Shown here: in pieces, positions 6,586-31,247 of the stretch
Position numbering within the stretch: the first letter of the stretch is position 1
Layout of the letters: each line of letters opens with the position of its first letter
Origin: Thermoproteus tenax Kra 1
GTDB lineage: Archaea > Thermoproteota > Thermoprotei > Thermoproteales > Thermoproteaceae
Direction: 5' to 3'
DNA length: 32,000 nucleotides
Assembly (NCBI RefSeq): GCF_000253055.1
Contig: NC_016070.1
Location: 90,001-122,000, forward strand
Program-made: the position numbers and the translations under genes
Notes under the pieces: generated by a model
What the model was told of the DNA's origin: nothing
Seen by the model: the letters and a program-made list of their open reading frames with translations, nothing else
Databases searched by the model: none

Positions 6586-7111
6586 CCAAGTCCTACGCTA
6601 TATGTAAGCCTCGTTGTCCATTTTAAGATGGCGGCTAGCTCGATAGTCTTGCCCACGACGTACTTGGCGACGTTCCCTATCTAGCTTGAGGACTGATGCC
6701 TGCTCGCTTCTATGGAGAATATATGACTCCCTCCCCGCCCTAAAGGGCGAGGTTTGCTGTTTATGCTGGCGTACCGCCGCCGAGGCGCGACGGCGTTGCG
6801 TGGTGCATCTACACGGGCCTGAGCTTAGACAGTAGCTTGTACATTTTTTGGAATCAATCTTTAATGCATTTCTGATCTCAGGAAATTTCGGCGGGCCCCG
6901 ACACTTGCCGGGGGAACCTGAAATAATTTCGGCGAAAGACCGCTTGCAGCTCTAGGGATCCTAAAAAGGCGGCAGTTTTTGTTTCCTTTTGATGGGTCCG
7001 CCCCTTTGGGGTGAAGTAGGTCGTAAGCTTTTTAACTATAGCCAACATATTCTGACGACCCCCTGGAGGGGGCACATGAGCGGCCGCCACCTAGGCGGCT
7101 GCGGCCGCGAT
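6586..7111. other. about 0.5 kb region without a convincing ORF; candidate small RNA(s) or gene remnant
   Basis: Plus-strand T-runs at 6844-6849 and 6976-6980. GC hairpins at 7059-7072 (CCCCC-TGGA-GGGGG) and 7080-7102. The 10-nt direct repeat aatttcggcg occurs at 6884 and 6925. I could recognise no tRNA, RNase P or SRP signature. Confidence 0.25.
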
Positions 7112-7396
7112 CTAGGCGAAGTTCTCGATATACTCTAGCCAGAGCTCTAGGTCTTTTAGGTCGAGAGGCTCGACGTGTTCGCCCGATCGTATCTGTGCTT
7201 GAGTAAACCGTACGTATTCTCCCTCGCGCACGCCCCTCAGCACTATCAGCCTGTGCCCCTCCCCCTCTCCTATGCTTGCTGCCTCCTCTAACGACGGCGT
7301 CGTGAAAACGAGCTCTACATCGTTACCGTGCTCCTTTAAGACATAGCCGGGCGATGCCTCTACGTACCTCTTCAATTTGTCGTAGGTCACTCTCAT
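7112..7396 (-). CDS. hypothetical protein (94 aa)
   Basis: Clean ORF with ATG 7396, about 23 nt from the shared TATA element. I recognise no family. Confidence 0.6.
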   Translation of the reverse strand: MRVTYDKLKRYVEASPGYVLKEHGNDVELVFTTPSLEEAASIGEGEGHRLIVLRGVREGEYVRFTQAQIRSGEHVEPLDLKDLELWLEYIENFA

Positions 7397-13528: not shown

Positions 13529-14089
13529 ATGGATTCAATAGGATTGATTGCAGCTCTGGCCATACTTATAGGAGCGTGGTACGCTATTGCATCATTGATA
13601 GGAAGAAGAATAAATATAAAATCTATAAAGAAATGTAATGAACTATGTTTAATTGAAAAATATTTAGTGACAGGTACTTCTTTCTTCGTAGAATTTAAAT
13701 GCAATTGGGCAAAATATCTAGGGGTTTTTGTCCAGAGACTTCCTTGGGATAATCCATTAAATCTTGTAGCCAGTTTGATATCTCTAAGGAAGCCTATGGC
13801 GATTGTCAAAGCTGAGTTAGATGCGCCAATCCCCTGGAGTCTGGACATGTCCAGCAAGGGGGCTCTGGGACATGCCGAGGAGATAGATGGATTTTTTGTG
13901 GTGAACAGAAACACGCCTAAGAGCTTAGTTAATGAGCTTGTCGATGCATGTAAAAAGTTAGGAATAACAAGGTTGATTTTGGGCGGAAGGCCGCCAATCC
14001 AGCTGTTTGTGCAATCAGACGACTGCGCTAGAGTCCTTCAATTATCGGAAAATATAATTAAAATTATTGCTAAACATACAAAGAAGTAA
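13529..14089 (+). CDS. hypothetical N-terminally membrane-anchored protein
   Basis: 186 aa with one N-terminal hydrophobic helix (IGLIAALAILIGAWYAIASLIG). It lies in the most AT-rich part of the window. I prefer it over the antisense ORF 13294..13914. Confidence 0.5.
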   Translation: MDSIGLIAALAILIGAWYAIASLIGRRINIKSIKKCNELCLIEKYLVTGTSFFVEFKCNWAKYLGVFVQRLPWDNPLNLVASLISLRKPMAIVKAELDAPIPWSLDMSSKGALGHAEEIDGFFVVNRNTPKSLVNELVDACKKLGITRLILGGRPPIQLFVQSDDCARVLQLSENIIKIIAKHTKK

Positions 14090-14118
14090 TACTTAAAAAT
14101 AAGAATAAGATAGCTCCT

Positions 14119-15909
14119 ATGGGTTTCTTTGACACCCCGGCCCCGTATATATTGGCTGGATTAGTATTATATTTTATTACATATATGACGTATTCAAAAT
14201 ATATAGATAGAAAGATATGGAGCGCCGATCCCAATAGACCAACTCCGGCGAGGATGTATTTTGACGGCGTAGAGTATTTCCCAGTATCTAAGTACGTCTT
14301 GTTCGGATATCAGTTCAAGTCAGTCGCAGCTCTGGGCCCCATCGTGGGCCCGTTGACCGCCGTATTGTTCTACGGTTGGGTTCCGGCTCTGCTCTGGGTG
14401 ATTTTCGGCAATATGTTCATTGGGTGGGTGCAAGACTATTCGGCCATGATGATGTCCATAAGGAGCGACGGCAGATCTATGGGGCCGATAACATACAAAC
14501 TGCTCGGCGGAAGGGCCAGGACCATCTTGTTGGTATATTTGATATTCTATCTCATAATAATAACCGCCGTATTTGAGTGGACCATCGTGGACGTGCTTAA
14601 TAGAGTTCCCGGCACATTTACCGCTGTGTTGTTCGTGCTGTTGGGAGGCATAGTCTTCGGCCAACTGGTCTTCAGAATGAAGATGGACGTGCTAAAGGCC
14701 ACGGTAATAGCCTTGCTCATAGTTCTTGCAGGATATTTCTTGGTGGCCTTTGTGCCAGCGGTGAGGAGCCCGCCGACGAACTTCTTGGACAATCCAGCCA
14801 CGTTGAGCCGCTTTCCGGCACCTAAGGGCGTTAACCCGGCCACTTTGACGTGGCCTGGAACATCTACAGCTTTGTTCTGGTTGATTGTAATTTCCGTTAT
14901 CTACCTAGCGGCCTCTCTGACTACTATGCCTAAGTTTCTACTGCCTACCGTCTATGTAGGCTATCTGCCGTCAATAATAGCGCTTGTACTGGTCCTAATA
15001 GCGGCCATCGCCACTCCACTGACAGGTCTCACAATCCAACAGACGTCCCTCAAGGCACTCTACGTGGATCCCCTAGTTAATCCCCAAGGAGGTCCGATCT
15101 GGCCAATACTCTTTGTTACAATAGCGTGCGGCGCAATATCGGGGTGGCATAGCCTGATCTCCTCAGGCCTCACTTCAAAACAGCTCGAGTATGAGACAGA
15201 TGCGTTGCCCGTCGGCGGAGGCGCCATGATGACCGAAGGCGCCGTGGCCCTCTCGTCGATAGCAGCTATGATGGTGTTAGCGGCTCCGCCGCTAGGGGCC
15301 GCCGCCTATGTGGTAGGCGCTACCACGCTTACGTCAAAGCTTCTGAACGTTCCACCTATATTTATGAGTATATTGTACGGCATATTCGTCACAGTAATGG
15401 GCCTAATAACATCTATGTTGTTTGTCAGAGTCTTCAGGCTCACTATGGCGGAGCTTTTCGAGAGATCTCCTCTAGGTAATAAGTATATAGCTACTTTGAT
15501 TATACTTATATTAAGTGGCTTTTTGGCCTTCGTAGGATCTTGGACCAACTTGTGGATATTCTTTGGTGGAACAAATCAGTTGTTGGCGGCTCTTGCCCTC
15601 CTACTTGTAGCTATATTCCTTGTCAGCCAGAAGAAGCCGTCGACGTACGTATTCATACCGGGCATATTTATGGCAGTGACTACCCTCGCGGCTCTGGCGT
15701 GGGAGACCTACGTCTATGGGCTATACGCTGTATTGAACAAGCCAATAGGCGTTCAGGCTGCGGCTGCTATGTTATATGGAAACTGGGTCGTAAGTGTGTC
15801 GAACTACATCTCAGCGGCATTCGGCGCATTGCTATTAATACTAGGTATTATAATGACATACTACTTAATAAAAGGCTGGTTAAGCTACAGAGCTGAAGCC
15901 AAAAAATAA
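14119..15909 (+). CDS. cstA: carbon starvation protein CstA family transporter (peptide/pyruvate uptake)
   Basis: 596 aa and polytopic. The N-terminal region ...FGYQFKSVAALGPIVGP...GWVPALLWVIFGNMFIGWVQDY is characteristic of CstA. Confidence 0.9.
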   Translation: MGFFDTPAPYILAGLVLYFITYMTYSKYIDRKIWSADPNRPTPARMYFDGVEYFPVSKYVLFGYQFKSVAALGPIVGPLTAVLFYGWVPALLWVIFGNMFIGWVQDYSAMMMSIRSDGRSMGPITYKLLGGRARTILLVYLIFYLIIITAVFEWTIVDVLNRVPGTFTAVLFVLLGGIVFGQLVFRMKMDVLKATVIALLIVLAGYFLVAFVPAVRSPPTNFLDNPATLSRFPAPKGVNPATLTWPGTSTALFWLIVISVIYLAASLTTMPKFLLPTVYVGYLPSIIALVLVLIAAIATPLTGLTIQQTSLKALYVDPLVNPQGGPIWPILFVTIACGAISGWHSLISSGLTSKQLEYETDALPVGGGAMMTEGAVALSSIAAMMVLAAPPLGAAAYVVGATTLTSKLLNVPPIFMSILYGIFVTVMGLITSMLFVRVFRLTMAELFERSPLGNKYIATLIILILSGFLAFVGSWTNLWIFFGGTNQLLAALALLLVAIFLVSQKKPSTYVFIPGIFMAVTTLAALAWETYVYGLYAVLNKPIGVQAAAAMLYGNWVVSVSNYISAAFGALLLILGIIMTYYLIKGWLSYRAEAKK

Positions 15910-15940
15910 ACATTTTTAACGTACCCTCTTTTCTCCTTTT

Positions 15941-16189
15941 GTGGGAATCCTCAACAGGATAAGAGAGGTAATCGAGGGAATGGCGGTGCATGGACAGGCG
16001 GCCTCAATTCTTAAAATCAAGGCACAGATAGATAATTTATTCATGATAATAACACTCGGCGACATGTTAGGCATACCGCTACTGCCGCCGTATTACTCGC
16101 TTAGGTTGCTCCCCTATATGTTCCCCAACATACAGAGTTGGAAAATGTATATGCTTAGGGAGAGAGACGTCACAGATATGATAGCATGA
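15941..16189 (+). CDS. small conserved protein, paralog A (82 aa), first gene of the ATPase operon
   Basis: Shares the core LG(D/E)(M/F)LGIPLL..YY..RLLPY...K..ML.E.D with ORF 18158..18421. GTG start about 25 nt after catttttaa. ATGA overlap with the next gene. Confidence 0.65.
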   Translation: MGILNRIREVIEGMAVHGQAASILKIKAQIDNLFMIITLGDMLGIPLLPPYYSLRLLPYMFPNIQSWKMYMLRERDVTDMIA

Positions 16190-17187
16190 TAGGGCTCAAG
16201 GGCCTTCTGGAGAGAAAGCCTAAGCTTAAGGTCATTATATATGCCGGTAAGGGAGGCCTCGGCAAAACGACTTTAAGCGCGGCGACATCGCTATTGTTAT
16301 CTAGGGACAAGCGGGTCCTAGTCTTCAGTACAGACCCTCAAGCCTCCCTAAGCGATGTCTTTGAGCGCGACGTCTTTGGAAAGGGTGAGGTCCAGATAGC
16401 AGAGAACCTCTATGTATTAGAGATAGATGCCGATAAAAGAATAAATGAGTATGTGACATCTATAAAAAGAAAAATAATTGATATGTATAAGTTGGATAAA
16501 CTGCCGCCAGATCTAGAGGAGTATATAGATAGCGCGGCCGCGGAGCCTGCTATGTACGAGAGCGCGGTGTACGACGCCATGGTCGACGTCGTTTCCGAGG
16601 GAAAATACGACTATTATATCTTCGATATGCCGCCGTTTGGACACGGAATAAGGATGATCGCGATGGCCGATATCTTGAGTAAATGGGTCGAAAAGATCAC
16701 CGAGCTGAGGCAACAAGCCTACGACTACGGCAGAGTGGCCTCGTCGCTCAAGCGCGCTAAACTCACGTACGAAGACGAAATACTCAAGGAGCTGCAGTAC
16801 ATAAGAGATAGAATAGTGGCCTTCAGAAATATAATAACTAACAGAGAGAGCGCATCGTTTATGGTGGTTGTAACTCCCGAAAAAATGAGCATACTAGATA
16901 CGGAGAAGGCCATCGAGATGTTCTCCTCTCTCGGCCTAGAGGTGTCCGGCATTGTTGTAAACCAAGTCTATCCCCCCGAGCTCTCTAAGGACCCCAGGAC
17001 GCCTGAGTACATAAGGAACAGAATAGAAGAGCAGAGGAAATATATGGATGAGATACGGCGTAAGTTCGGCGACTTGGTCATTTCAGTTGTGCCTATGTTG
17101 AACAGAGAGCCCAAGGGCCTCGAGGCGCTGTCCATAGTGGCCAAAGAGCTCTGGTCCCCAAGCAGACCGTTTGAGGAGTACCTATGA
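16186..17187 (+). CDS. ArsA/Get3 (TRC40)-family P-loop ATPase, motif-complete subunit
   Basis: Deviant Walker A GKGGLGKTT, STDPQASLSDVF and switch II FDMPPFGHG. 333 aa with no cysteine at all. Confidence 0.9.
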   Translation: MIGLKGLLERKPKLKVIIYAGKGGLGKTTLSAATSLLLSRDKRVLVFSTDPQASLSDVFERDVFGKGEVQIAENLYVLEIDADKRINEYVTSIKRKIIDMYKLDKLPPDLEEYIDSAAAEPAMYESAVYDAMVDVVSEGKYDYYIFDMPPFGHGIRMIAMADILSKWVEKITELRQQAYDYGRVASSLKRAKLTYEDEILKELQYIRDRIVAFRNIITNRESASFMVVVTPEKMSILDTEKAIEMFSSLGLEVSGIVVNQVYPPELSKDPRTPEYIRNRIEEQRKYMDEIRRKFGDLVISVVPMLNREPKGLEALSIVAKELWSPSRPFEEYL

Positions 17188-18161
17188 GGGCGTTGTTGAA
17201 CTCAAACACTAAGTTCTTCTTCTTCGGCGGAAAAGGCGGCGTAGGGAAGACGGTGGTCTCGGCGGCTGTGGCTCTGTACTTCGCCGATAGGGGAGAGAAG
17301 ACTTTATTGGCCAGCTTCAACCCGGTCCACTCGCTGTCGTCGCTGTTCCAACAGGACTTAAGCGGCGGCGATATCAAGAAGGTGGTTGGGCTTGAGAACC
17401 TATACGCAGTGGAGGTAGAAATCGACGACATAATAACGAAATATAAGGAGAGGGTCAGCACGCTGTTGAGAGAGCTGTTCAAGTGGGCCGAGCTACCGGT
17501 GGACACAAAGCCGTTGGTCGATATAGCGACGACGAACCCGTCTTTCCACGAGGCGGCCGCCTTCGACAAGATGATGGACGTAGTGTTGAACCAAGGGCAG
17601 AACTTCTCGCGCATTATATTTGATATGGCCGCTGTGGCCAACGCCGTGAGGCTGATAGGGCTTTCAAAGCTCTACGGGCTGTGGCTTCAGAGGACTATAA
17701 AGATGAGGCAGGAGGCCCTATCCTTGAGATACCAGCTGGCGTTTAGGAAGGAGAAAGTTATGGAGGAGATAAAGAAGGATCCCGTATTAAACGACTTGAT
17801 AAATCTTCAAGAGAGATATATTAAAGTTAGAGAAGTATTGAAGGATCCCAACATGACTCGGTTTATCTTTGTAACTATTCCCACGATGTTGTCAATATCT
17901 GTTGTGAAGAGGTTCATAGATATGGTAAGGGCGTACGAGATACCCATAGGCGGCGTGGTGGTCAATATGGTCATCCCGCGGGAGGAGGCAGAGAGAGACC
18001 AGACAGGCTTCCTTAAGTCTAAAAGCGAGGAGCAAGCCAAGAACTTGGAGCTTATAGACCGCTATTTCGGCGACTTAGTGCTGAGTAGAGTAAAACTGTT
18101 CCCAGAAGATATAGTGGGTATAGAGAGATTACGTCAATTTGTCAATGAGCTTATCAAATGA
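17184..18161 (+). CDS. ArsA/Get3-family P-loop ATPase, motif-degenerate subunit
   Basis: Walker A GKGGVGKTV is intact. The TDP motif reads SFNPVHSL (Asp to Asn), and switch II reads FDMAAVANAV, with no P..GH. There is no cysteine. ATGA overlaps at both ends. Confidence 0.9.
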   Translation: MRALLNSNTKFFFFGGKGGVGKTVVSAAVALYFADRGEKTLLASFNPVHSLSSLFQQDLSGGDIKKVVGLENLYAVEVEIDDIITKYKERVSTLLRELFKWAELPVDTKPLVDIATTNPSFHEAAAFDKMMDVVLNQGQNFSRIIFDMAAVANAVRLIGLSKLYGLWLQRTIKMRQEALSLRYQLAFRKEKVMEEIKKDPVLNDLINLQERYIKVREVLKDPNMTRFIFVTIPTMLSISVVKRFIDMVRAYEIPIGGVVVNMVIPREEAERDQTGFLKSKSEEQAKNLELIDRYFGDLVLSRVKLFPEDIVGIERLRQFVNELIK

Positions 18162-18421
18162 AAATTAAACAGATAATATATGATTTCTTATTTGGAGCTT
18201 TTTATCTAGATCTCTATAAGGAAGTTGCAAAGATCCATAAACAATTGTTGTTGGTTACAGAGTTTTTGGTCTTCGGCGAATTCCTGGGGATCCCCCTCCT
18301 CAGCTCTTACTACGCGATGAGGCTGTTGCCCTATTTCGTCGGAGAGCTATACGATTTCAAGTCCGAGATGCTCAAGGAGAAGGACCTCTTCGAGGAGATA
18401 GCGCACGTGGATGTCCACTGA
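18158..18421 (+). CDS. small conserved protein, paralog B (87 aa)
   Basis: Paralog of 15941..16189 (FGEFLGIPLLSSYYAMRLLPYF...KSEMLKEKD). ATGA overlap with the preceding ATPase gene. Confidence 0.7.
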   Translation: MKIKQIIYDFLFGAFYLDLYKEVAKIHKQLLLVTEFLVFGEFLGIPLLSSYYAMRLLPYFVGELYDFKSEMLKEKDLFEEIAHVDVH

Positions 18422-18860
18422 AGAATACTCTTGGCACACAATAGCTGTCGGCAATAGCATCCTGGGCGTGTATAACTTTATAGTGCTTGCGGCGCCTCCC
18501 GACTGGAAGCTCATTATTATGCCCATGGCCTCCGACATCTTCTCCTACGTGTCCAAAGACGGCGCCAAATGGGTGAGGGACGGCGAGGTAAAACACTTCA
18601 TAAAGGGGGGAAGAGAGTTCTTCGAGCTTGAGATCAAGGTCAAGCCGGGCAACAAGGCCAGAGCTGCCGGCTCTGCGGTAGAGTTCGGCGGCCACAGTGG
18701 AGTCTATTCAGTGGCCGAGGAGGGTCTTATCAAGAGGAAGAAGGCGTTAATAATAGAGGCCTATTGTCCCGAGACGGATAGAACGATCACAATAAAGATA
18801 AAGGGGGAGAGGGCGCCTCTAGAGGTCTTGAAATACGTTAAATTCAGTAGATGTCACTAA
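18411..18860 (+). CDS. hypothetical protein (149 aa), last gene of the ATPase operon
   Basis: Overlaps the previous ORF by 11 nt, consistent with translational coupling. No family recognised. Confidence 0.55.
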   Translation: MSTEEYSWHTIAVGNSILGVYNFIVLAAPPDWKLIIMPMASDIFSYVSKDGAKWVRDGEVKHFIKGGREFFELEIKVKPGNKARAAGSAVEFGGHSGVYSVAEEGLIKRKKALIIEAYCPETDRTITIKIKGERAPLEVLKYVKFSRCH

Positions 18861-19708
18861 GTTCTCTCGAATATCGAGAAATAATACGGCGTTTTGGAGA
18901 ACCTCTGCACTCTCGTTAGACCGGCCAACGGCAACAGATCTTCTATCATATCGGCGGTGAACACGTTGTTTCCGCTCCATAGAAAGACAGTCGCTATTGA
19001 GGGTAGCGCCGCTGCGTCCGTATTGCCTACGATGACCTTGCCGCCGCGCCTTAGACGGTCGACAAGACATTTGACCTCCCTGTATGGGTCTATGAACCAG
19101 TGGAAGGACTCAAACAATATCAAAGTATCATATTCGACTCTGCTTATTTCACAGGCGCTCGCGGCCCTCTCTAGAGACGTTATCCCCACCTCCGCTAGAT
19201 CTTTGATGGGCTCCTCACGTCTCTCGTATGTCTTTATATCGAGACCGGCCCTCCTCAGCTCTTCAGCCAGCGGGAATACCTCGCCTAGGAAGGGCGCCAA
19301 GGCTCTGCCTGTCGCTACTTTTTTGACCATTTCTATATAGATGTTCATAATGCTATAGTACCAAGGCGACATCAACATGGAGATCCTTAGGAGCTCAGCC
19401 ATTTCGTCCAGCCTGTTCAGAGATCGAGTAACAGAATCGTGGAAGTCCACAAACTGGACCCCCAGCGTTGACCTCAAAGAGGGCGGCCTCGGGCTCGCCT
19501 TGGGCTCCCCCCTCTGATTTACTTTGTTGCTCAACAGAAGCACCTTAAACAAAGAGTTGGCATATCTGTCGTTGCGACCTCGTAAAACGTTCCACCAGCT
19601 GAGCGCGTAGTACGCGCTTGTATCCAGCAAATCTTTAATGGGGCCTATTAGGGACAGCCTCTGTGCTACAGCCATCGTACGGTCATCCTCTGAAAACAGA
19701 CTAACCAT
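18857..19708 (-). CDS. class I SAM-dependent methyltransferase-like protein (motif I degenerate)
   Basis: The C-terminal half (YDTLILFESFHWFIDPYREVKCLVDRLRRGGKVIVGN) resembles methyltransferase type 11/12 post-I/III motifs. The glycine-rich motif I is not obvious. Confidence 0.45.
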   Translation of the reverse strand: MVSLFSEDDRTMAVAQRLSLIGPIKDLLDTSAYYALSWWNVLRGRNDRYANSLFKVLLLSNKVNQRGEPKASPRPPSLRSTLGVQFVDFHDSVTRSLNRLDEMAELLRISMLMSPWYYSIMNIYIEMVKKVATGRALAPFLGEVFPLAEELRRAGLDIKTYERREEPIKDLAEVGITSLERAASACEISRVEYDTLILFESFHWFIDPYREVKCLVDRLRRGGKVIVGNTDAAALPSIATVFLWSGNNVFTADMIEDLLPLAGLTRVQRFSKTPYYFSIFERT

Positions 19709-19716
19709 CTACTTCT

Positions 19717-20067
19717 TTAATTCATAAACATTTTTAATTTTTTAACTAAATATTCTGGGTTTTTAACGGGACCTTTATGTACTAGTCTTCTATTAAATAT
19801 AATCAACGGAACTTTGCCTGTTCTATATTTGGCCATGAGGTACAGCCCCCTCAGAGTTAGAGGGTTCGTAAATCTGACCCTAAACGAGCCGTTGAGACGC
19901 GACAAAGCCACCAATATTGCCTCAAAGTCGCTATCGCTCTTTTGCCCAAGATCTTCCGTCAACTCTATCTTAAACGCCTTAGCCACACTGTCGCACGTTC
20001 TACAGATACCGGCCCTAGTGGGGACAAACATAACGACCTCGAGCAGAGGCGCCTCCTGGGCGTCCAT
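19717..20067 (-). CDS. thioredoxin-fold CxxC protein (ArsD / DUF1462-like by eye)
   Basis: 116 aa. A beta1-like [16 protein letters not shown] (CxxC) and a C-terminal [26 protein letters not shown], arranged like ArsD/YuzD-type thioredoxin-fold proteins. Confidence 0.5.
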
Positions 20068-22370: not shown

Positions 22371-22380
22371 TTTTTATATA
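22371..22380 (+). promoter_or_regulatory. TATA-like box (tttttatata) of the lysX-like/lysY/lysZ operon
   Basis: Its centre is about 22 nt upstream of ATG 22398. Confidence 0.55.
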
Positions 22381-22397
22381 GGCTCGGTCGGGCCCCT

Positions 22398-22466
22398 ATG
22401 GAATTTGCGGGGAAAGCGGGGCCAGCGGGGCGAAGATATATATCATCTCCGAGAAGCCCGAGCTAG
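22398..22466 (+). promoter_or_regulatory. 22-codon leader ORF (MEFAGKAGPAGRRYISSPRSPS) with three tandem GCGGGG+codon units; candidate -1 frameshift sensor
   Basis: GCGGGGAAA, GCGGGGCCA and GCGGGGCGA at 22407-22433. The leader frame is +1 relative to the downstream enzyme frame, which is open from 22382 but has no ATG, GTG or TTG before 22478. Confidence 0.55.
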
Positions 22467-23083
22467 GGGAGAGGCTTTTGGCCAAGTTTATATCGGCCCG
22501 GGGTCTCTCAGCCGAGATAGTTGGCCTTGAGGGCGGCATCTCCTCGCCGGAGGGGCTCGCCGTAATTAGGACTAGGAACCAGTACTTGGGAGCGACCTAC
22601 GCCGCTGTATTTAGGCGGGCTGTTAACCAGGCCCACGCCATTTATAATGCCTTGAACAGACTCTACTGGTTGCCCAAGTTCGGCCCGCCCTTCATGGCGT
22701 TCGTCGAAGAGGACGCCGTAGAGAAAGTTGAGTTCGGCCCGCCCTGGCTCTTGGCTACTGCGTGGCGCCTCGGGCTTGACAGCGTAGTGACGAGCGTTGA
22801 GGGGGCCAAGAGCGTGGTGGAGCACCGCTCCTACATGAGGAATCCCCTGGCCAAGGCCAGCGTAGTGATGCCCAAGCCCAGGGAGGTCAAAAGGGTCTTC
22901 GCCGTGGCAGGCATGTCCGACGGAATAGTGGACGAACTCTTGAGGGCCACAGGCTTGAGATACGCCGAGGTGGCCCTGGGCGTGTACGAGGACGGCGAGC
23001 GCGTCATAGACGTCGACCCCATCCCCGAGCTCGACGAGGCCCGCGCAAGGCTCTTGGCAGAATTTCTGGCGTCGGAGACATGA
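22398..23083 (+). CDS. short, divergent RimK/LysX/ArgX-like protein (expression appears to need a -1 shift from ATG 22398)
   Basis: The enzyme frame begins ...AKIYIISEKPELGERLLAKFISARGLSAEIV, which resembles a pre-ATP-grasp N-terminus. The C-terminus ...GLRYAEVALGVYEDGERVIDVDPIPEL resembles the end of an ATP-grasp. It occupies the first slot of the lysY-lysZ operon. It is only about 215 aa and lacks an obvious central ATP-grasp domain. Confidence 0.45.
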
Positions 23084-25165: not shown

Positions 25166-25175
25166 ATTTTAATAC
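25166..25175 (+). promoter_or_regulatory. TATA-like box (attttaatac) of argG
   Basis: Its centre is about 23-24 nt upstream of ATG 25194. Confidence 0.55.
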
Positions 25176-25193: not shown

Positions 25194-25232
25194 ATGCCCT
25201 CGGGGCGAGAAAGATCAGTAGAATCGCGTTAG
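25194..25232 (+). promoter_or_regulatory. 12-codon leader ORF (MPSGRERSVESR) with UCG GGG CGA; candidate -1 frameshift sensor for arginine
   Basis: ATG 25194 is +1 relative to the argG frame. The G-run 25202-25205 is followed by the Arg codon CGA. 3 of the 12 leader codons are Arg. Confidence 0.55.
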
Positions 25233-28402: not shown

Positions 28403-29068
28403 CTATCGGCATAGGGCCTCCGCGAGTAGGCCCGAGAGCTTGAGCGCCTCCTCCCTCCTTAAGTACCGCCCCCTCCTAGGCACCACAAGGGCCCTCTCTG
28501 TCCCGTCTGTCAGACTCGCCGGTATGACGGCGAGGACGCTCTCGAGAGACAAGAGCTCGTCTAAGGCAGGGCCCAGAGCTCTGGCGTAGCTCTCAGGCAA
28601 GATTGCCAAGACTGCCCCGAACCTCTTCAGTAAGGCTTGCGTCCTCTCCGGGACCCCCCTCTCCAGAGACCACCTGGCCAGCTCATCGCGGCGTAGAGCG
28701 TTTAAGGTTGCCTCGTAGGGGATAATGGGCTCATCCCAGCGGATCAAGCCGTATCGAGCGCTTACGATGAACAGCTCAGCTCTGGCACATTGTCGCACTC
28801 TATAGAAGATCGACCTCACTTGCGCGAAGGATCCACCGTACATCTCTACGGCGGGCTTAATAAAGCTCTGTAGCGCCTCCCTATATGTGTTCTCCCTCTC
28901 CAGGTCGAAGCCGGGCACGCCCAAGCCTCTGACCTTCAGCGCCTCCACGACGGAGCTCCAGTCCACTTTCTTCCTCTTAGTGCAGTGGGCCAGTATCAAT
29001 AGATCCCTAGACTTGAACCTCTCCCTCAACTGTTCCGCCGTTATGTCCTCTATTGAGACGAGAGGCAT
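28403..29068 (-). CDS. hypothetical protein (DUF6884-like pattern by eye)
   Basis: 221 aa. LILAHCTKRKK...PAVEMYGGSF...LFIVSARYGLIRWDEPIIPYEATL resembles the C..K / Y.G / SA.YGL / PY signature, recalled from memory. It has its own TATA-like box. Confidence 0.45.
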   Translation of the reverse strand: MPLVSIEDITAEQLRERFKSRDLLILAHCTKRKKVDWSSVVEALKVRGLGVPGFDLERENTYREALQSFIKPAVEMYGGSFAQVRSIFYRVRQCARAELFIVSARYGLIRWDEPIIPYEATLNALRRDELARWSLERGVPERTQALLKRFGAVLAILPESYARALGPALDELLSLESVLAVIPASLTDGTERALVVPRRGRYLRREEALKLSGLLAEALCR

Positions 29069-29116: not shown

Positions 29117-30534
29117 CTAAGGGGCGGAGGGCGCTTGGAGGGAGCCCAGCTGTTTCAACACTATGTTGGTCAACGTGGATTTAACGCCTCTGACCGACCT
29201 TATATCCTCTATTATTCTGTTCAATTCCTCAGCGTTGGAGGCCACCACTCTTGCGACGATATCGAAATCCCCAGTGACCTCTCCCACGTTGACGACGCCG
29301 CTAATCGTGGACACTCTGCGGGCCACCGAGGTGGTGTATACGTTTTCGTCCACTTTTATCCAGATGAACGCCTCAATATGTTTGTTTACATACGCCTTAT
29401 ATCTCACGCCCGTGACCTTCTCCAAGATCTCCAAGAGGTCCTCGTCTCTAAGCCTCCTCGCGTTCGTGGATTTGAGCTCCTCCACGACTTTGGCCAGAGT
29501 CTCCTCGTCTACCTTCACGCCGAGTCTCTCAAGCCGGTGGGCCACGGCGCGCCTTCCGCTATATTTGTCTAGGGAGAAGTCCCTCGACCTCCCCACGACC
29601 TCGGGCGGAAACGGCTCGTAGGTCTCTGGATTCGCCAGTACACCTGCTTGGTGGACGCCGGCCTTGTGAGTGAACACATTGTCGCCAGTTATGGGGAAGG
29701 TGGGCATCTGGGCGATCCCGCTGGCCGCCTCCACCAGCGAGGCCAAGTAGGGGAGCTTCGCCATATCGATGAGCTTGACGCCCTTGTGGTAGTAGTAGGC
29801 CGCGACGAAGACTTGGAGAGGGGTGATACCTGCTCTCTCCCCGAGGCCGTTCACTGTCGTGTGAACTACGTCGGCTCCGCCCTCGGTCGCAGCCATTGAG
29901 TTGGCCACGGCCATCCCTAAGTCGTTGTGGGCGTGTATATCTAGTCCGACCCCAGGCACGGCCTCCTTCAGCTTCGAGAAGAGTTGGCGCGCTCTATCGG
30001 GAGTGAGTATCCCCACTGTGTCGGCAATGCTCACTCTGTCCGCGCCTGCGTCTCGCGCAGTTTTTACCACTTGTATAAGGTAGTCGAGGTCTGCCCTAGT
30101 GGCGTCTTCGGCTGTGAACCTCACCTTCACGCCGGCGCCTCTCGCGAACTCCACGTGTTCGGCGATTATGGCCAAAGCCTCCTCTCTGGTCTTCCTGTGT
30201 TTGTGCTTCAGATGTATATCGCTGACGCCGTAGAAGATGGCGACTCTGTCGGGCTCAAGCGACGTCGCGTTCTCTATATCTGATTTGACGGATCTGCTGT
30301 GGACGACTATCTCGCTCTTGATTTCGCCGTCTCGCTTCAGAGCTATTATCTTCGAGATAGCCGATCTGACGTCGGGCGCCACGTTTGGGTCGCCCACCTC
30401 TATTAAGTGGACGCCTACATCCGACAGAGACTTCGCTATCTTGATCCTCCATTCCTCAGAGAATATAACGCCCGGAGTCTGCTCGCCCTCTCTCAGCGTC
30501 GAGTCGAGAATTTTTATGCTTTCCCCGAACTCAT
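29117..30534 (-). CDS. homocitrate synthase (LeuA/HCS family) with C-terminal RAM domain; body in frame with GTG 30553, but the likely initiation is ATG 30534 plus a -1 shift
   Basis: LDSTLREGEQTPG and HAHNDLGMAVANS...NGLGERAGI form a DRE-TIM core. The last ~90 aa (EAFIWIKVDENV...GDFDIVARVVASNAEELNRIIEDIRSVRGV) form an Lrp/AsnC-type RAM domain instead of a LeuA dimerisation domain. GTG 30553 abuts the TATA box. Confidence 0.9.
30514..30534 (-). promoter_or_regulatory. 6-codon leader ORF (MSSGKA) with UCG GGG AAA; candidate -1 frameshift sensor for lysine
   Basis: On the minus strand: ATG 30534, TCG 30528-26, GGG 30525-23 (G-run 30526-30523), AAA 30522-20 and TAA 30516-14. The ATG is +1 relative to the HCS frame. 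Confidence 0.55.
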
Positions 30535-30553
30535 GGCGGCTGAACCGACCCAC

Positions 30554-30561
30554 TATATAAA
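30554..30561 (-). promoter_or_regulatory. TATA box (TTTATATA on the minus strand) of the homocitrate synthase gene
   Basis: Its centre is about 23-24 nt upstream of ATG 30534. It directly abuts GTG 30553, so that GTG is unlikely to lie within the transcript. Confidence 0.55.
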
Positions 30562-30596
30562 CCTAACTCGCGGAGGAGAGTCTATATAGAAAATAG

Positions 30597-31085
30597 CTAC
30601 TTCGAGCCCCTTATCTTCAGATATTCAGTCAAGCCGCCGGCCTTGAGGATCTCGAGCGCAAGCCCCGACAGCGGCTTGCCCTTTATCACCTCGCCGGTGG
30701 ACAAGTTCACCACCTCGCCTGTCTCAACACGGACGACGACCTCATCGCCGTCTCTGACCCTCCCCCTCGCCGGGGCCTGCAACACTGGCAGTCCCACGTT
30801 GATGGCGTTCCGGAAGAAGATTCTGGCGAACGACTCGGCCACTACGGCCAATACACCGGCCCCCTTCAGTGCCGTGGCCGCTTGCTCGCGGCTGCTCCCC
30901 ATCCCGAAGGCTCTGCCGGCCACTATCACGGCCCCCTTAGCCTTCTTCGGGAACTCGGGATCTAGAGGCTCCATGGCGTGTTGGCCCAGGACGGCCGGGT
31001 CAGTATATACTAGATATCTGGCAGGTATAATTACGTCGGTATCTATCTTGTCGCCGTAGACCAAGGCCCTCCCCCTTATTTCCAT
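30597..31085 (-). CDS. 3-isopropylmalate/homoaconitate dehydratase small subunit (LeuD/HacB family)
   Basis: 162 aa. [29 protein letters not shown] and [13 protein letters not shown] motifs. No large-subunit gene lies next to it in this window. Confidence 0.9.
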
Positions 31086-31157: not shown

Positions 31158-31167
31158 TTTAAATATA
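31158..31167 (+). promoter_or_regulatory. TATA-like box (tttaaatata) of ilvB
   Basis: Its centre is about 22-23 nt upstream of ATG 31185. Confidence 0.55.
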
Positions 31168-31184: not shown

Positions 31185-31247
31185 ATGGATTCGGGGGTTA
31201 CATCGGGGCTCGAGGGGATCGCCCCAATAGGGTGGTCGACAGAGTAA
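31185..31247 (+). promoter_or_regulatory. 20-codon leader ORF (MDSGVTSGLEGIAPIGWSTE) with three G-run sites followed by Val, Leu and Ile codons; candidate -1 frameshift sensor
   Basis: TCGGGGGTT at 31191-99, TCGGGGCTC at 31203-11 and GAGGGGATC at 31212-20. The leader frame is +1 relative to the ilvB frame, which is open from 31178. Confidence 0.5.

Follow-up and report, generated by a model that had tools for sequence, protein, structure and literature searches.

An out-of-frame leader at the homocitrate synthase gene of Thermoproteus tenax, with counterparts at other amino-acid biosynthesis genes of Thermoproteus and Pyrobaculum, as a candidate frameshift sensor of amino-acid supply

The homocitrate synthase (HCS) gene of Thermoproteus tenax Kra 1 lies on the minus strand of the stretch of DNA analyzed here, which is 32,000 nt long (NC_016070.1, positions 90,001–122,000) and is called the window below; all coordinates are window positions. 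A mechanical listing of open reading frames (ORFs) gives the gene as 29117..30553, starting at a GTG codon. The encoded protein is a homocitrate synthase of the fungal/archaeal LysS type, with a TIGR02146 score of 516 bits against a cut-off of 413.55, matches to PF00682, PF22617, and PF01037, the N-terminal substrate/metal motif LDSTLREGEQ, and a LysM-like C-terminus. Upstream, a gene of the LeuD/HacB type runs in the same direction and ends at TAG 30599–30597, leaving a gap of 43 nt.

From this stop codon onward, the minus strand reads TAG, CTATTTTCTATATAGACTCTCCTCCGCGAGTTAGG, the TATA box TTTATATA, GTG, GGTCGGTTCAGCCGCC, ATG AGT TCG GGG AAA GCA TAA, and AAATTCTCGACTCGACGCTGAGAGAGGGCGAGCAG (Table 1). 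The ATG at 30534 opens a short ORF, MSSGKA, which is closed by the TAA and is not in the frame of HCS. The HCS frame reads GGG 30526, GAA 30523, AGC, ATA, AAA, ATT, CTC, GAC, and stands in the −1 relation to the frame of this ATG. A −1 slip on G GGG would give MSSG joined to ESIKILDSTLREGEQ, a predicted product of 472 aa; the HCS structure of S. acidocaldarius, 6KTQ, aligns from residue 7 of this trans-frame product. A preliminary description, made from the letters of the window, had placed the TATA box, the GTG, the ATG, the G-run, the AAA, and the TAA on the minus strand, had read the slipped frame as MSSG followed by ESIKILDSTLREGEQ, and had named the gene as homocitrate synthase. All coordinates and frames proved exact, and both the frame reading and the gene assignment were borne out.

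The two candidate start codons lie at different distances from the promoter: GTG 30553 comes 8 nt after the first T of TTTATATA, and ATG 30534 comes 27 nt after it. In other genes of the window (e.g., at 1227, 7442, 14119, 28403–29068, and 30597–31085), a TATA-like 8-mer starts 25–31 nt before the start codon, and the 27-nt spacing of the HCS leader agrees with that of these ordinary leaderless genes. For P. aerophilum, ten mapped transcripts are described as having no 5' untranslated region (PMC2151090). We infer that HCS transcription starts about 25–27 nt after the TATA box and that the mRNA is leaderless; with such a start, the 5'-terminal AUG 30534 would be the only usable start codon.

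HCS DNA of relatives was collected from GTDB genomes, by exact-protein look-ups, and by a clade-specific pattern scan of metagenomes that was anchored in the coding core and not in the leader. This yielded 25 distinct HCS 5' regions, from P. aerophilum, P. islandicum, P. arsenaticum/oguniense, P. neutrophilum, metagenomic sequences, and Thermoproteus (loci are cited below by numbers beginning with L). A comparison of this kind had been put forward in the preliminary description as a check, and it returned the same architecture in 25/25 regions. In each of them, a TATA 8-mer starts 25–28 nt (mode 27) before an ATG outside the HCS frame, which is the out-of-frame ATG at leaderless distance that had been claimed for the window. 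The ATG is followed by one to three codons and then by NNG GGG AAA, with G GGG AAA lying 5–11 nt after the ATG; the 0 frame stops 2–10 codons past the slip site, and HCS follows in the −1 frame. As in canonical −1 programmed ribosomal frameshifting (PRF), the −1 frame is long, open for about 446–479 codons, and overlaps the early-terminating 0-frame ORF. The recurrence of this arrangement with an invariant GGGGAAA in all 25 homologous regions goes beyond chance. The leaders of relatives, each ending at a stop codon, include MRSGKA, MRSGKT, MNSGKA, MSQGKAASQY, MTSSGKP, MRSGKTAQ, MRQGKDGLRY, MHSGKEGIR, MRSGKEATR, MEQAGKLRY, MHQGKEESGFSTPR, and MPGKDTQRFSTQH.

In a motif-anchored comparison, GGGGAAA is the sole fully invariant block (22/22 distinct ungapped alignments), and both the 18-nt spacer between TATA box and ATG and the sequence after the motif are essentially randomized across lineages. 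GGG follows a codon for Ser (TCG), Gln (CAG), Ala (GCG), or Pro (CCG), always one with G in its third position. An invariant G GGG AAA combined with a changing preceding amino acid is the signature of a −1 re-pairing site and not of a conserved peptide, which upholds the earlier reading of the G-run as the place of re-pairing. The lysine codon is also conserved against codon preference in most of the genes counted: AAA makes up from 0/12 to 5/26 of the lysine codons in seven of ten HCS genes of relatives, and it is a common or the majority lysine codon in the remaining three (P. aerophilum, P. islandicum, and L089). In the genes of the window, GGG accounts for 23% of glycine codons, and AAA is the minor lysine codon, at 29%.

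The same conservation bears on a non-ribosomal origin of the frame break. Since homopolymer runs are prone to errors and a single added G or A would bring HCS into frame, a pseudogene, polymerase slippage adding a G or an A, or an indel in the G-run from sequencing or assembly could in principle produce what is observed. Against this, exactly four G and three A residues are found in 25 independent sequences, finished genomes included, on which grounds a sequencing indel or a pseudogene is rejected; apart from the frame break, the HCS gene is complete and conserved. Known transcriptional slippage sites are far longer than 4 G or 3 A, and polymerase slippage would be indifferent to the identity of the codon that follows, which, as described below, matches the pathway. 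We give such an origin a very slight chance.

In at least 14 of the 25 regions, the HCS frame has no ATG, GTG, or TTG from the closest preceding stop up to LDSTLREGEQ, and this stop is often a TAA or TAG inside the TATA box itself. The HCS genes of the outgroups, namely Vulcanisaeta/Caldivirga-like "Thermoproteaceae" loci (~57% identity), Sulfolobales, Desulfurococcales, and one 66%-identity relative, start at an ordinary in-frame ATG, GTG, or TTG. Ordinary initiation at GTG 30553 in the window would call for a transcript that begins farther upstream, either at a second AT-rich element with the core CTATATAG or by read-through from the hacB/leuD-like gene, and it would add the N-terminal peptide MGRFSRHEFGESIK. 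This GTG is in frame, the AT-rich element lies 36–37 nt upstream, and the preceding gene is co-directional and close. The codon is, however, absent in L001–L005, L009, L081, and others, where a stop in the HCS frame falls within the TATA box or beside it; between the TATA region and the ATG, L001–L005 have an in-frame TAA/TGA and P. aerophilum has a TAG, with no canonical start after it. Read-through is impossible in Pyrobaculum because the upstream gene is divergent there. In addition, the extended N-termini of annotated HCS proteins share only the part that back-translates to the ATG...GGGGAA motif. Initiation at the GTG, which the preliminary description had already discounted, is thus highly improbable.

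The upstream element, CTATATAG / AATATAG, is partly palindromic and occupies the same relative place in L001–L009 and L081–L091. Similar elements, (G)CTATATAG / AATATAG, are present in both genera, though the upstream gene runs in the same direction as HCS in only one of them and diverges from it in the other. The element may be a second promoter, a divergent promoter, or a regulator site.

The HCS site departs from the canonical −1 PRF signal in two respects. The heptamer X XXY YYZ is absent: the tRNA in the P site re-pairs, and the A-site codon is mismatched at its first position, so that AAA (in the sister leaders described below CGA, CCA, CTC, GTY, ATY, or ACG) would face GAA, GCG, GCC, and the like after the slip. 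Nor was a stimulatory hairpin or pseudoknot found 5–9 nt downstream. The RNAalifold consensus of 14 lineages for the downstream region has −2.9 kcal/mol and no compensatory pairs, and the single-sequence fold gives a nonsignificant z = −0.35; the lack of a conserved downstream structure is expected, since the slippage would involve the P site only. An Rfam scan of the whole window at gathering thresholds found no RNA family or riboswitch at the HCS leader, and a search of the window for tRNA-Gly and tRNA-Lys genes found none.

Both strands of the window were scanned for an ATG opening a short ORF (≤25 codons) with an in-frame X XXX and a −1 frame that stays open for 120 codons or more. A TATA box 25–28 nt before the ATG is present in only four of the hits, and all four (4/4) belong to amino-acid biosynthesis genes (Table 1). 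Besides HCS, these are orfX, which precedes lysY, lysZ, and lysW, the argininosuccinate synthase gene argG, and ilvB, which encodes the large subunit of acetolactate synthase. The orfX and ilvB leaders carry three G GGG units each.

Table 1. Features of the HCS locus, its sister leaders in the window, and orfX loci (window positions unless a locus number is given).
Feature	Position	Strand	Remarks
Second AT-rich element TTTCTATATAGA, core CTATATAG	30581..30592	−	about 20–30 nt upstream of the main TATA box
TATA box TTTATATA of the HCS promoter	30554..30561	−	first base 27 nt before ATG 30534
GTG, mechanical ORF start	30551..30553	−	adjoins the TATA box; rejected as real start
HCS leader ORF, ATG AGT TCG GGG AAA GCA TAA (MSSGKA, stop)	30514..30534	−	0 frame of the presumed leaderless mRNA; sensor codon AAA (Lys)
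HCS leader ATG	30534-30532	−	
HCS leader G-run	30526-30523	−	
HCS leader AAA	30522-30520	−	
HCS leader TAA	30516-30514	−	
Proposed −1 slip site G GGG AAA	30520..30526	−	invariant among relatives, flanks vary
HCS reading frame	29117..30526	−	−1 relative to leader; C-terminal RAM/AsnC-type domain
orfX leader MEFAGKAGPAGRRYISSPRSPS, stop	22398..22466	+	TATA 22371-22380; −1 frame is orfX, to 23083, then lysY, lysZ, lysW
orfX proposed slip site G GGG AAA (Lys)	22409-22415	+	
orfX proposed slip site G GGG CCA (Pro)	22418-22424	+	
orfX proposed slip site G GGG CGA (Arg)	22427-22433	+	
argG TATA TTTTAATA	25167-25174	+	27 nt
argG leader MPSGRERSVESR, stop	25194..25232	+	−1 frame is argininosuccinate synthase, to 26404
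argG proposed slip site G GGG CGA (Arg)	25202-25208	+	
ilvB leader MDSGVTSGLEGIAPIGWSTE, stop	31185..31247	+	TATA 31158-31165; −1 frame is acetolactate synthase large subunit, runs off the window
ilvB proposed slip site G GGG GTT (Val)	31193-31199	+	
ilvB proposed slip site G GGG CTC (Leu)	31205-31211	+	
ilvB proposed slip site G GGG ATC (Ile)	31214-31220	+	
orfX locus, window	22397-23083	+	
orfX locus, L115	3205-3878		
orfX locus, L113	664-1337		
orfX locus, L116	7143-7828		

The orfX product is a conserved protein of about 225 aa with no NCBIfam or Pfam match; its gene lies directly upstream of lysY-lysZ in Thermoproteus and is separate in Pyrobaculum.

Sister leaders recur in relatives. The ilvB leader with Val, Leu, and Ile codons is present in nine further Thermoproteus loci, including L001–L005, L099, L108, and L116, and the argG leader of L116 reads MPSGRRR. 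The orfX leader is conserved with the same three sensor amino acids in L113, L115, and L116; they come in another order than in the window (Pro, Lys, Arg) in P. arsenaticum and P. ferrireducens and stand as Lys, Pro, Arg in Thermoproteus L116. Two further operon types appear outside the window. The 2-isopropylmalate synthase gene leuA has the leaders MVSGLA, MASGLVQ, and MDSGLVG (TCG GGG CTC, Leu) in Pyrobaculum and Thermoproteus, and leaders of the form MEGISGTAY..., with GGG ATT (Ile) and GGG ACG (Thr), precede a thrC-like PALP gene, aspartate kinase, and aspartate-semialdehyde dehydrogenase.

In each case, the codon that follows G GGG fits the pathway: AAA for HCS, CGA for argG, AAA, CCA, and CGA for orfX-lysYZW, GTY, CTC, and ATC for ilvB, CTC for leuA, and ATT and ACG for thrC-ask-asd. 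G GGG, which permits full re-pairing in the P site, stands in 25/25 HCS leaders and before every sensor codon of the other leaders. A rough estimate of the chance that all 11 sensor codons of the six operon types match pathway products is ~4e-10. The sensor codons for Arg, Pro, and Lys are also the rare ones (CGA, 2% of Arg codons; CCA, 9% of Pro; AAA, 29% of Lys). The five operon types other than HCS, each with a pathway-matching codon after G GGG, reinforce the earlier suggestion that the lysine codon of the HCS leader serves as the sensor. As for the proline codon of orfX, T. tenax has ornithine cyclodeaminase genes and makes lysine via aminoadipate (PMC3189178), and proline is a plausible product of the LysW/ornithine route.

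In P. arsenaticum (L113, 7766–7905), a further leader, MSLGPEGKVGRAASTH followed by a stop, has Lys and Arg sensor codons. Its −1 ORF has 46 codons and ends with a TGA that overlaps the lysY ATG (ATGA), and frame 0 stops 85 nt earlier. Here, a frameshift would act via translational coupling and not by fusion.

A blind scan of 95 kb from six sources, on both strands, served as a control. It found 15 short ORFs at TATA–ATG sites that overlap a long ORF; in 15/15 the long ORF is in the −1 frame, 15/15 carry an in-frame G_GGG, and each precedes an amino-acid biosynthesis operon. The remaining TATA–ATG sites in the 95 kb are 13 ordinary long ORFs, and neither a long ORF in the +1 frame nor a short leader lacking G_GGG was found there. 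G_GGG leaders were absent from 162 kb of other archaeal loci, and 231 kb of bacterial loci yielded a single hit, attributed to chance. As no G_GGG leader occurs in 21 kb around argG of Vulcanisaeta, the device seems to be confined to the Thermoproteus/Pyrobaculum clade.

For argG of Vulcanisaeta moutnovskia (L117, 9900–10010), the annotated start is an ATC, and the sequence before AYSGGLD has no canonical start codon in frame. There is a +1-frame GTG at 23–29 nt after a TATA-like box, but no G GGG. This gene may have a different start or recoding solution.

The leaders have left their mark on public annotation. Dozens of Thermoproteus/Pyrobaculum HCS entries are 445 aa long and start at VFSEEW, past the catalytic LDSTLREGEQ; other entries begin with MLDST, MILDST, or MKILD, and still others carry unrelated extensions. 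The entry name of the P. aerophilum IM2 protein includes the words "with possible unusual start codon". Many HCS and ArgG records (P0021–P0073, P0131–P0149, and others) are cut past the catalytic motifs or begin at noncanonical codons, and in L116 ilvB is left uncalled between 16049 and 17914. In the window, the mechanical starts TTG 22478 (orfX) and TTG 25247 (argG) remove conserved N-terminal parts; the second of these codons comes only after AYSGGLDT, an essential motif of argininosuccinate synthase. The mis-calls of HCS, ArgG, and ilvB are systematic annotation errors produced by the leaders.

Current NCBI annotations (MKILD..., MILD..., MLDSTLREGEQ) imply starts of the reinitiation type, that is, the short ORF would be a regulatory upstream ORF and HCS would be made by termination–reinitiation or internal initiation at a noncanonical AUA, AUU, AUC, or GUA near its stop. 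The position of the leader stop is in keeping with this. In most lineages it lies 2–6 codons from the slip site, and it overlaps an NTA codon of the HCS frame as ATAA in the window, L009, L084, and L088 and as GTAA in L001–L005 and L104; in L007/L008 the overlap is with a true ATG (TGATG). An NTA-A overlap, however, arises automatically wherever a +1-frame TAA falls on a hydrophobic codon, and no start codon is conserved, a canonical start at the leader stop being present only in L007/L008. L090 and L109 have their leader stop within the catalytic core, 10 nt beyond the first base of the Asp codon in LDSTLREGEQ. Moreover, reinitiation accounts neither for the invariance of GGGGAAA, which persists against codon bias although the peptide varies, nor for the G GGG directly before every sensor codon of six operon types, with the frame always −1 and never +1. 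We therefore consider it unlikely, although among the alternatives for HCS it is the serious competitor.

In L007/L008 (~2496–2530), an in-frame ATG two codons ahead of LDSTLREGEQ shares bases with the TGA that ends the leader MTSSGKP (GTGATG). Both frameshifting and reinitiation may operate there, or the arrangement may be an evolutionary intermediate.

Two other roles for the conserved block were considered and dropped. GGGGAAA as part of an Lrp/LysM-type palindrome (TTC-N3-GAA) fails in Pyrobaculum, where the TTC half is absent (CCAGGGGAAAG). GGGG as a Shine-Dalgarno-like element for an AUA/AUU start would have a spacing of 5–14 nt, and the cognate codons would be left unexplained.

On the grounds given above, the HCS leader is probably an amino-acid sensor in which a leaderless mRNA is combined with a hungry-codon −1 slip of the P-site tRNA-Gly. 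The ribosome would initiate on the 5'-terminal AUG 30534, out of frame with HCS. After Met-Ser-Ser, peptidyl-tRNA-Gly would occupy GGG in the P site while the rare AAA awaits decoding in the A site. Since the base before GGG is also a G, this tRNA can step back by one base and keep three G:C pairs; as long as the A site is empty, it would move between GGG(0) and GGG(−1) at no base-pairing cost. With ample Lys-tRNA(UUU), frame 0 would be kept and translation would terminate after six codons, giving no enzyme. With scarce Lys-tRNA, Glu-tRNA on GAA would capture the slipped state, and full-length HCS, MSSG-ESIKILDSTLREGEQ, would be made. The first aminoacyl-tRNA to bind would decide the frame: 0 for the sensed one, −1 for an abundant GNN decoder (Glu, Ala, Gly, or Asp). 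The leader would then be a translational lysine sensor on the first enzyme of the aminoadipate pathway.

The slip sites of the leaders lie 2–10 codons past the AUG, and several units in one leader would form an OR gate. It may be speculated that three G:C pairs are what holds the peptidyl-tRNA at 85–100 °C and that closeness to the 5' end, with little upstream mRNA and a very short nascent chain, sets the leader sites apart from ordinary G_GGG. We infer the ribosomal nature of the slip, its efficiency, and its dependence on amino-acid supply from the comparison of the leaders.

The HCS leader is apparently one case of a wider, undescribed regulatory device; a literature search returned no account of such a leader in Pyrobaculum or Thermoproteus. 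It appears rather likely that regulon-wide "frameshift attenuators" exist in the two genera, with one or more units of G GGG plus sensor codon in the first 3–11 codons, where scarcity of the cognate tRNA would switch on the lysine, arginine/proline, branched-chain, and threonine operons. Such a system would be an archaeal counterpart of attenuation, the first natural use of hungry-codon slippage, and, where several units are present, a multivalent OR gate.

A real −1 shift could also be constitutive and of low efficiency, setting a low level of expression without sensing amino acids. In favor of this, HCS already possesses a further layer of control in its C-terminal RAM domain (LysM-like; PF01037), a type of domain that mediates lysine feedback in the HCS of Sulfolobus. 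A constitutive shift, however, needs only G GGG; it predicts neither pathway-cognate next codons nor the choice of rare synonyms for the Arg, Pro, and Lys sensor codons, and we regard it as quite unlikely.

Several points weigh against the sensor model and against its extension to the regulon. The entire case is built on sequence comparison, and the sample is made up of fetched loci and not of whole genomes. Because G GGG NNN differs from the canonical heptamer X XXY YYZ and the search for a stimulatory structure found none, a high efficiency is not guaranteed. In-frame G_GGG also occurs in ordinary genes of the window, 60 times in 6836 codons (0.9%), and there too it is found before CTC, GTC, and ATC and once before AAA; the motif alone is therefore no strong shifter, and either the 5'-proximal context must matter or the efficiency is modest. 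The in-frame GTG-ATG that overlaps the leader stop in L007/L008 makes reinitiation possible in these loci. The ilvB gene of the window has an in-frame GTG, although this is not conserved (GTC in L116 and L001–L005). Finally, the proline codon of the orfX leader makes sense only with ornithine as the source of proline, a route that for T. tenax is a proposal and not an established fact (PMC3189178).

The proposed device shares features with several known systems. With bacterial leader-peptide attenuation (trpL, thrL, leuL, ilvL/ivbL, hisL), it has in common a short 5' leader ORF with end-product codons and, as the signal, the speed of the ribosome at these codons. In E. coli, leaders of this kind are likewise multivalent, with Thr and Ile codons for thr and Val, Leu, and Ile codons for ilv. 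The bacterial leaders work through terminator and antiterminator hairpins, which were not found here, and lie before the enzyme ORF, whereas the leaders described here overlap it. The output would be a change of reading frame and not read-through, and each leader has one to three sensor codons, all of them coupled to a G GGG. The prfB (RF2, +1 at CUU UGA) and antizyme (+1, polyamines) genes also have an early-ending 0-frame ORF, a frameshift that depends on the speed of the A site, and feedback by the product; they differ in the +1 direction, the stop codon at the A site, the Shine-Dalgarno-like or pseudoknot stimulator, and in being single genes and not a regulon.

Closest in mechanism is the leftward hungry-codon −1 slippage described by Gallant and Lindsley in E. 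coli, together with the one-tRNA regime on dnaX, in which a P-site tRNA likewise re-pairs at a limiting A-site codon with no downstream structure (PMC8211752, PMC5009743). That slippage is known from starved reporter or mutant genes; here, the site is conserved, lies 2–10 codons from a leaderless 5' end, and would gate biosynthetic enzymes. Regarding trans-frame products specific to starvation, Atkins et al. (2016) stated that "no examples are known" (PMC5009743). The only −1 PRF known in Archaea according to a 2021 review of archaeal recoding (PMC8211752) is that of fucA1 from Sulfolobus solfataricus, likewise a crenarchaeal gene that needs a −1 shift for its full-length product (PMC1616953, PMC8211752), but with a canonical A AAA AAT heptamer in mid-gene that joins two long ORFs, no link to a leaderless start, and no amino-acid logic. 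The mycobacterial polycysteine attenuators, as presented in a preprint (bioRxiv 10.1101/834739), are likewise leaderless, 5'-terminal short ORFs that are rich in the sensed amino acid and control biosynthetic genes; in that account, they are bacterial, have a run of Cys codons, and involve no change of frame.

Two other observations concern the window as a whole. The sole Rfam match is asR3, a Pyrobaculum antisense RNA (RF02793), at 7058–7113 on the minus strand, with 71 bits against a gathering threshold of 46. The segment at ~14000–20000 has a G+C content of 0.48–0.49 versus 0.55–0.59 elsewhere and may be horizontally acquired or integrated.

Crenarchaeota have mostly leaderless mRNAs and are not known to have the Shine-Dalgarno-led initiation, RNA-structure attenuators, and T-boxes of bacteria; amino-acid control of their biosynthetic genes is poorly understood. 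If the proposed reading is true, a leaderless mRNA can hold a cis-acting amino-acid sensor within its first few codons, and this would be the first natural regulatory use of hungry-codon frameshifting. The archaeal genes that depend on a −1 frameshift would grow from one, fucA1, to a whole regulon, and the start and product would be corrected for dozens of mis-annotated genes, including the 445-aa HCS entries, argG, ilvB, and those with AUA or AUC starts.

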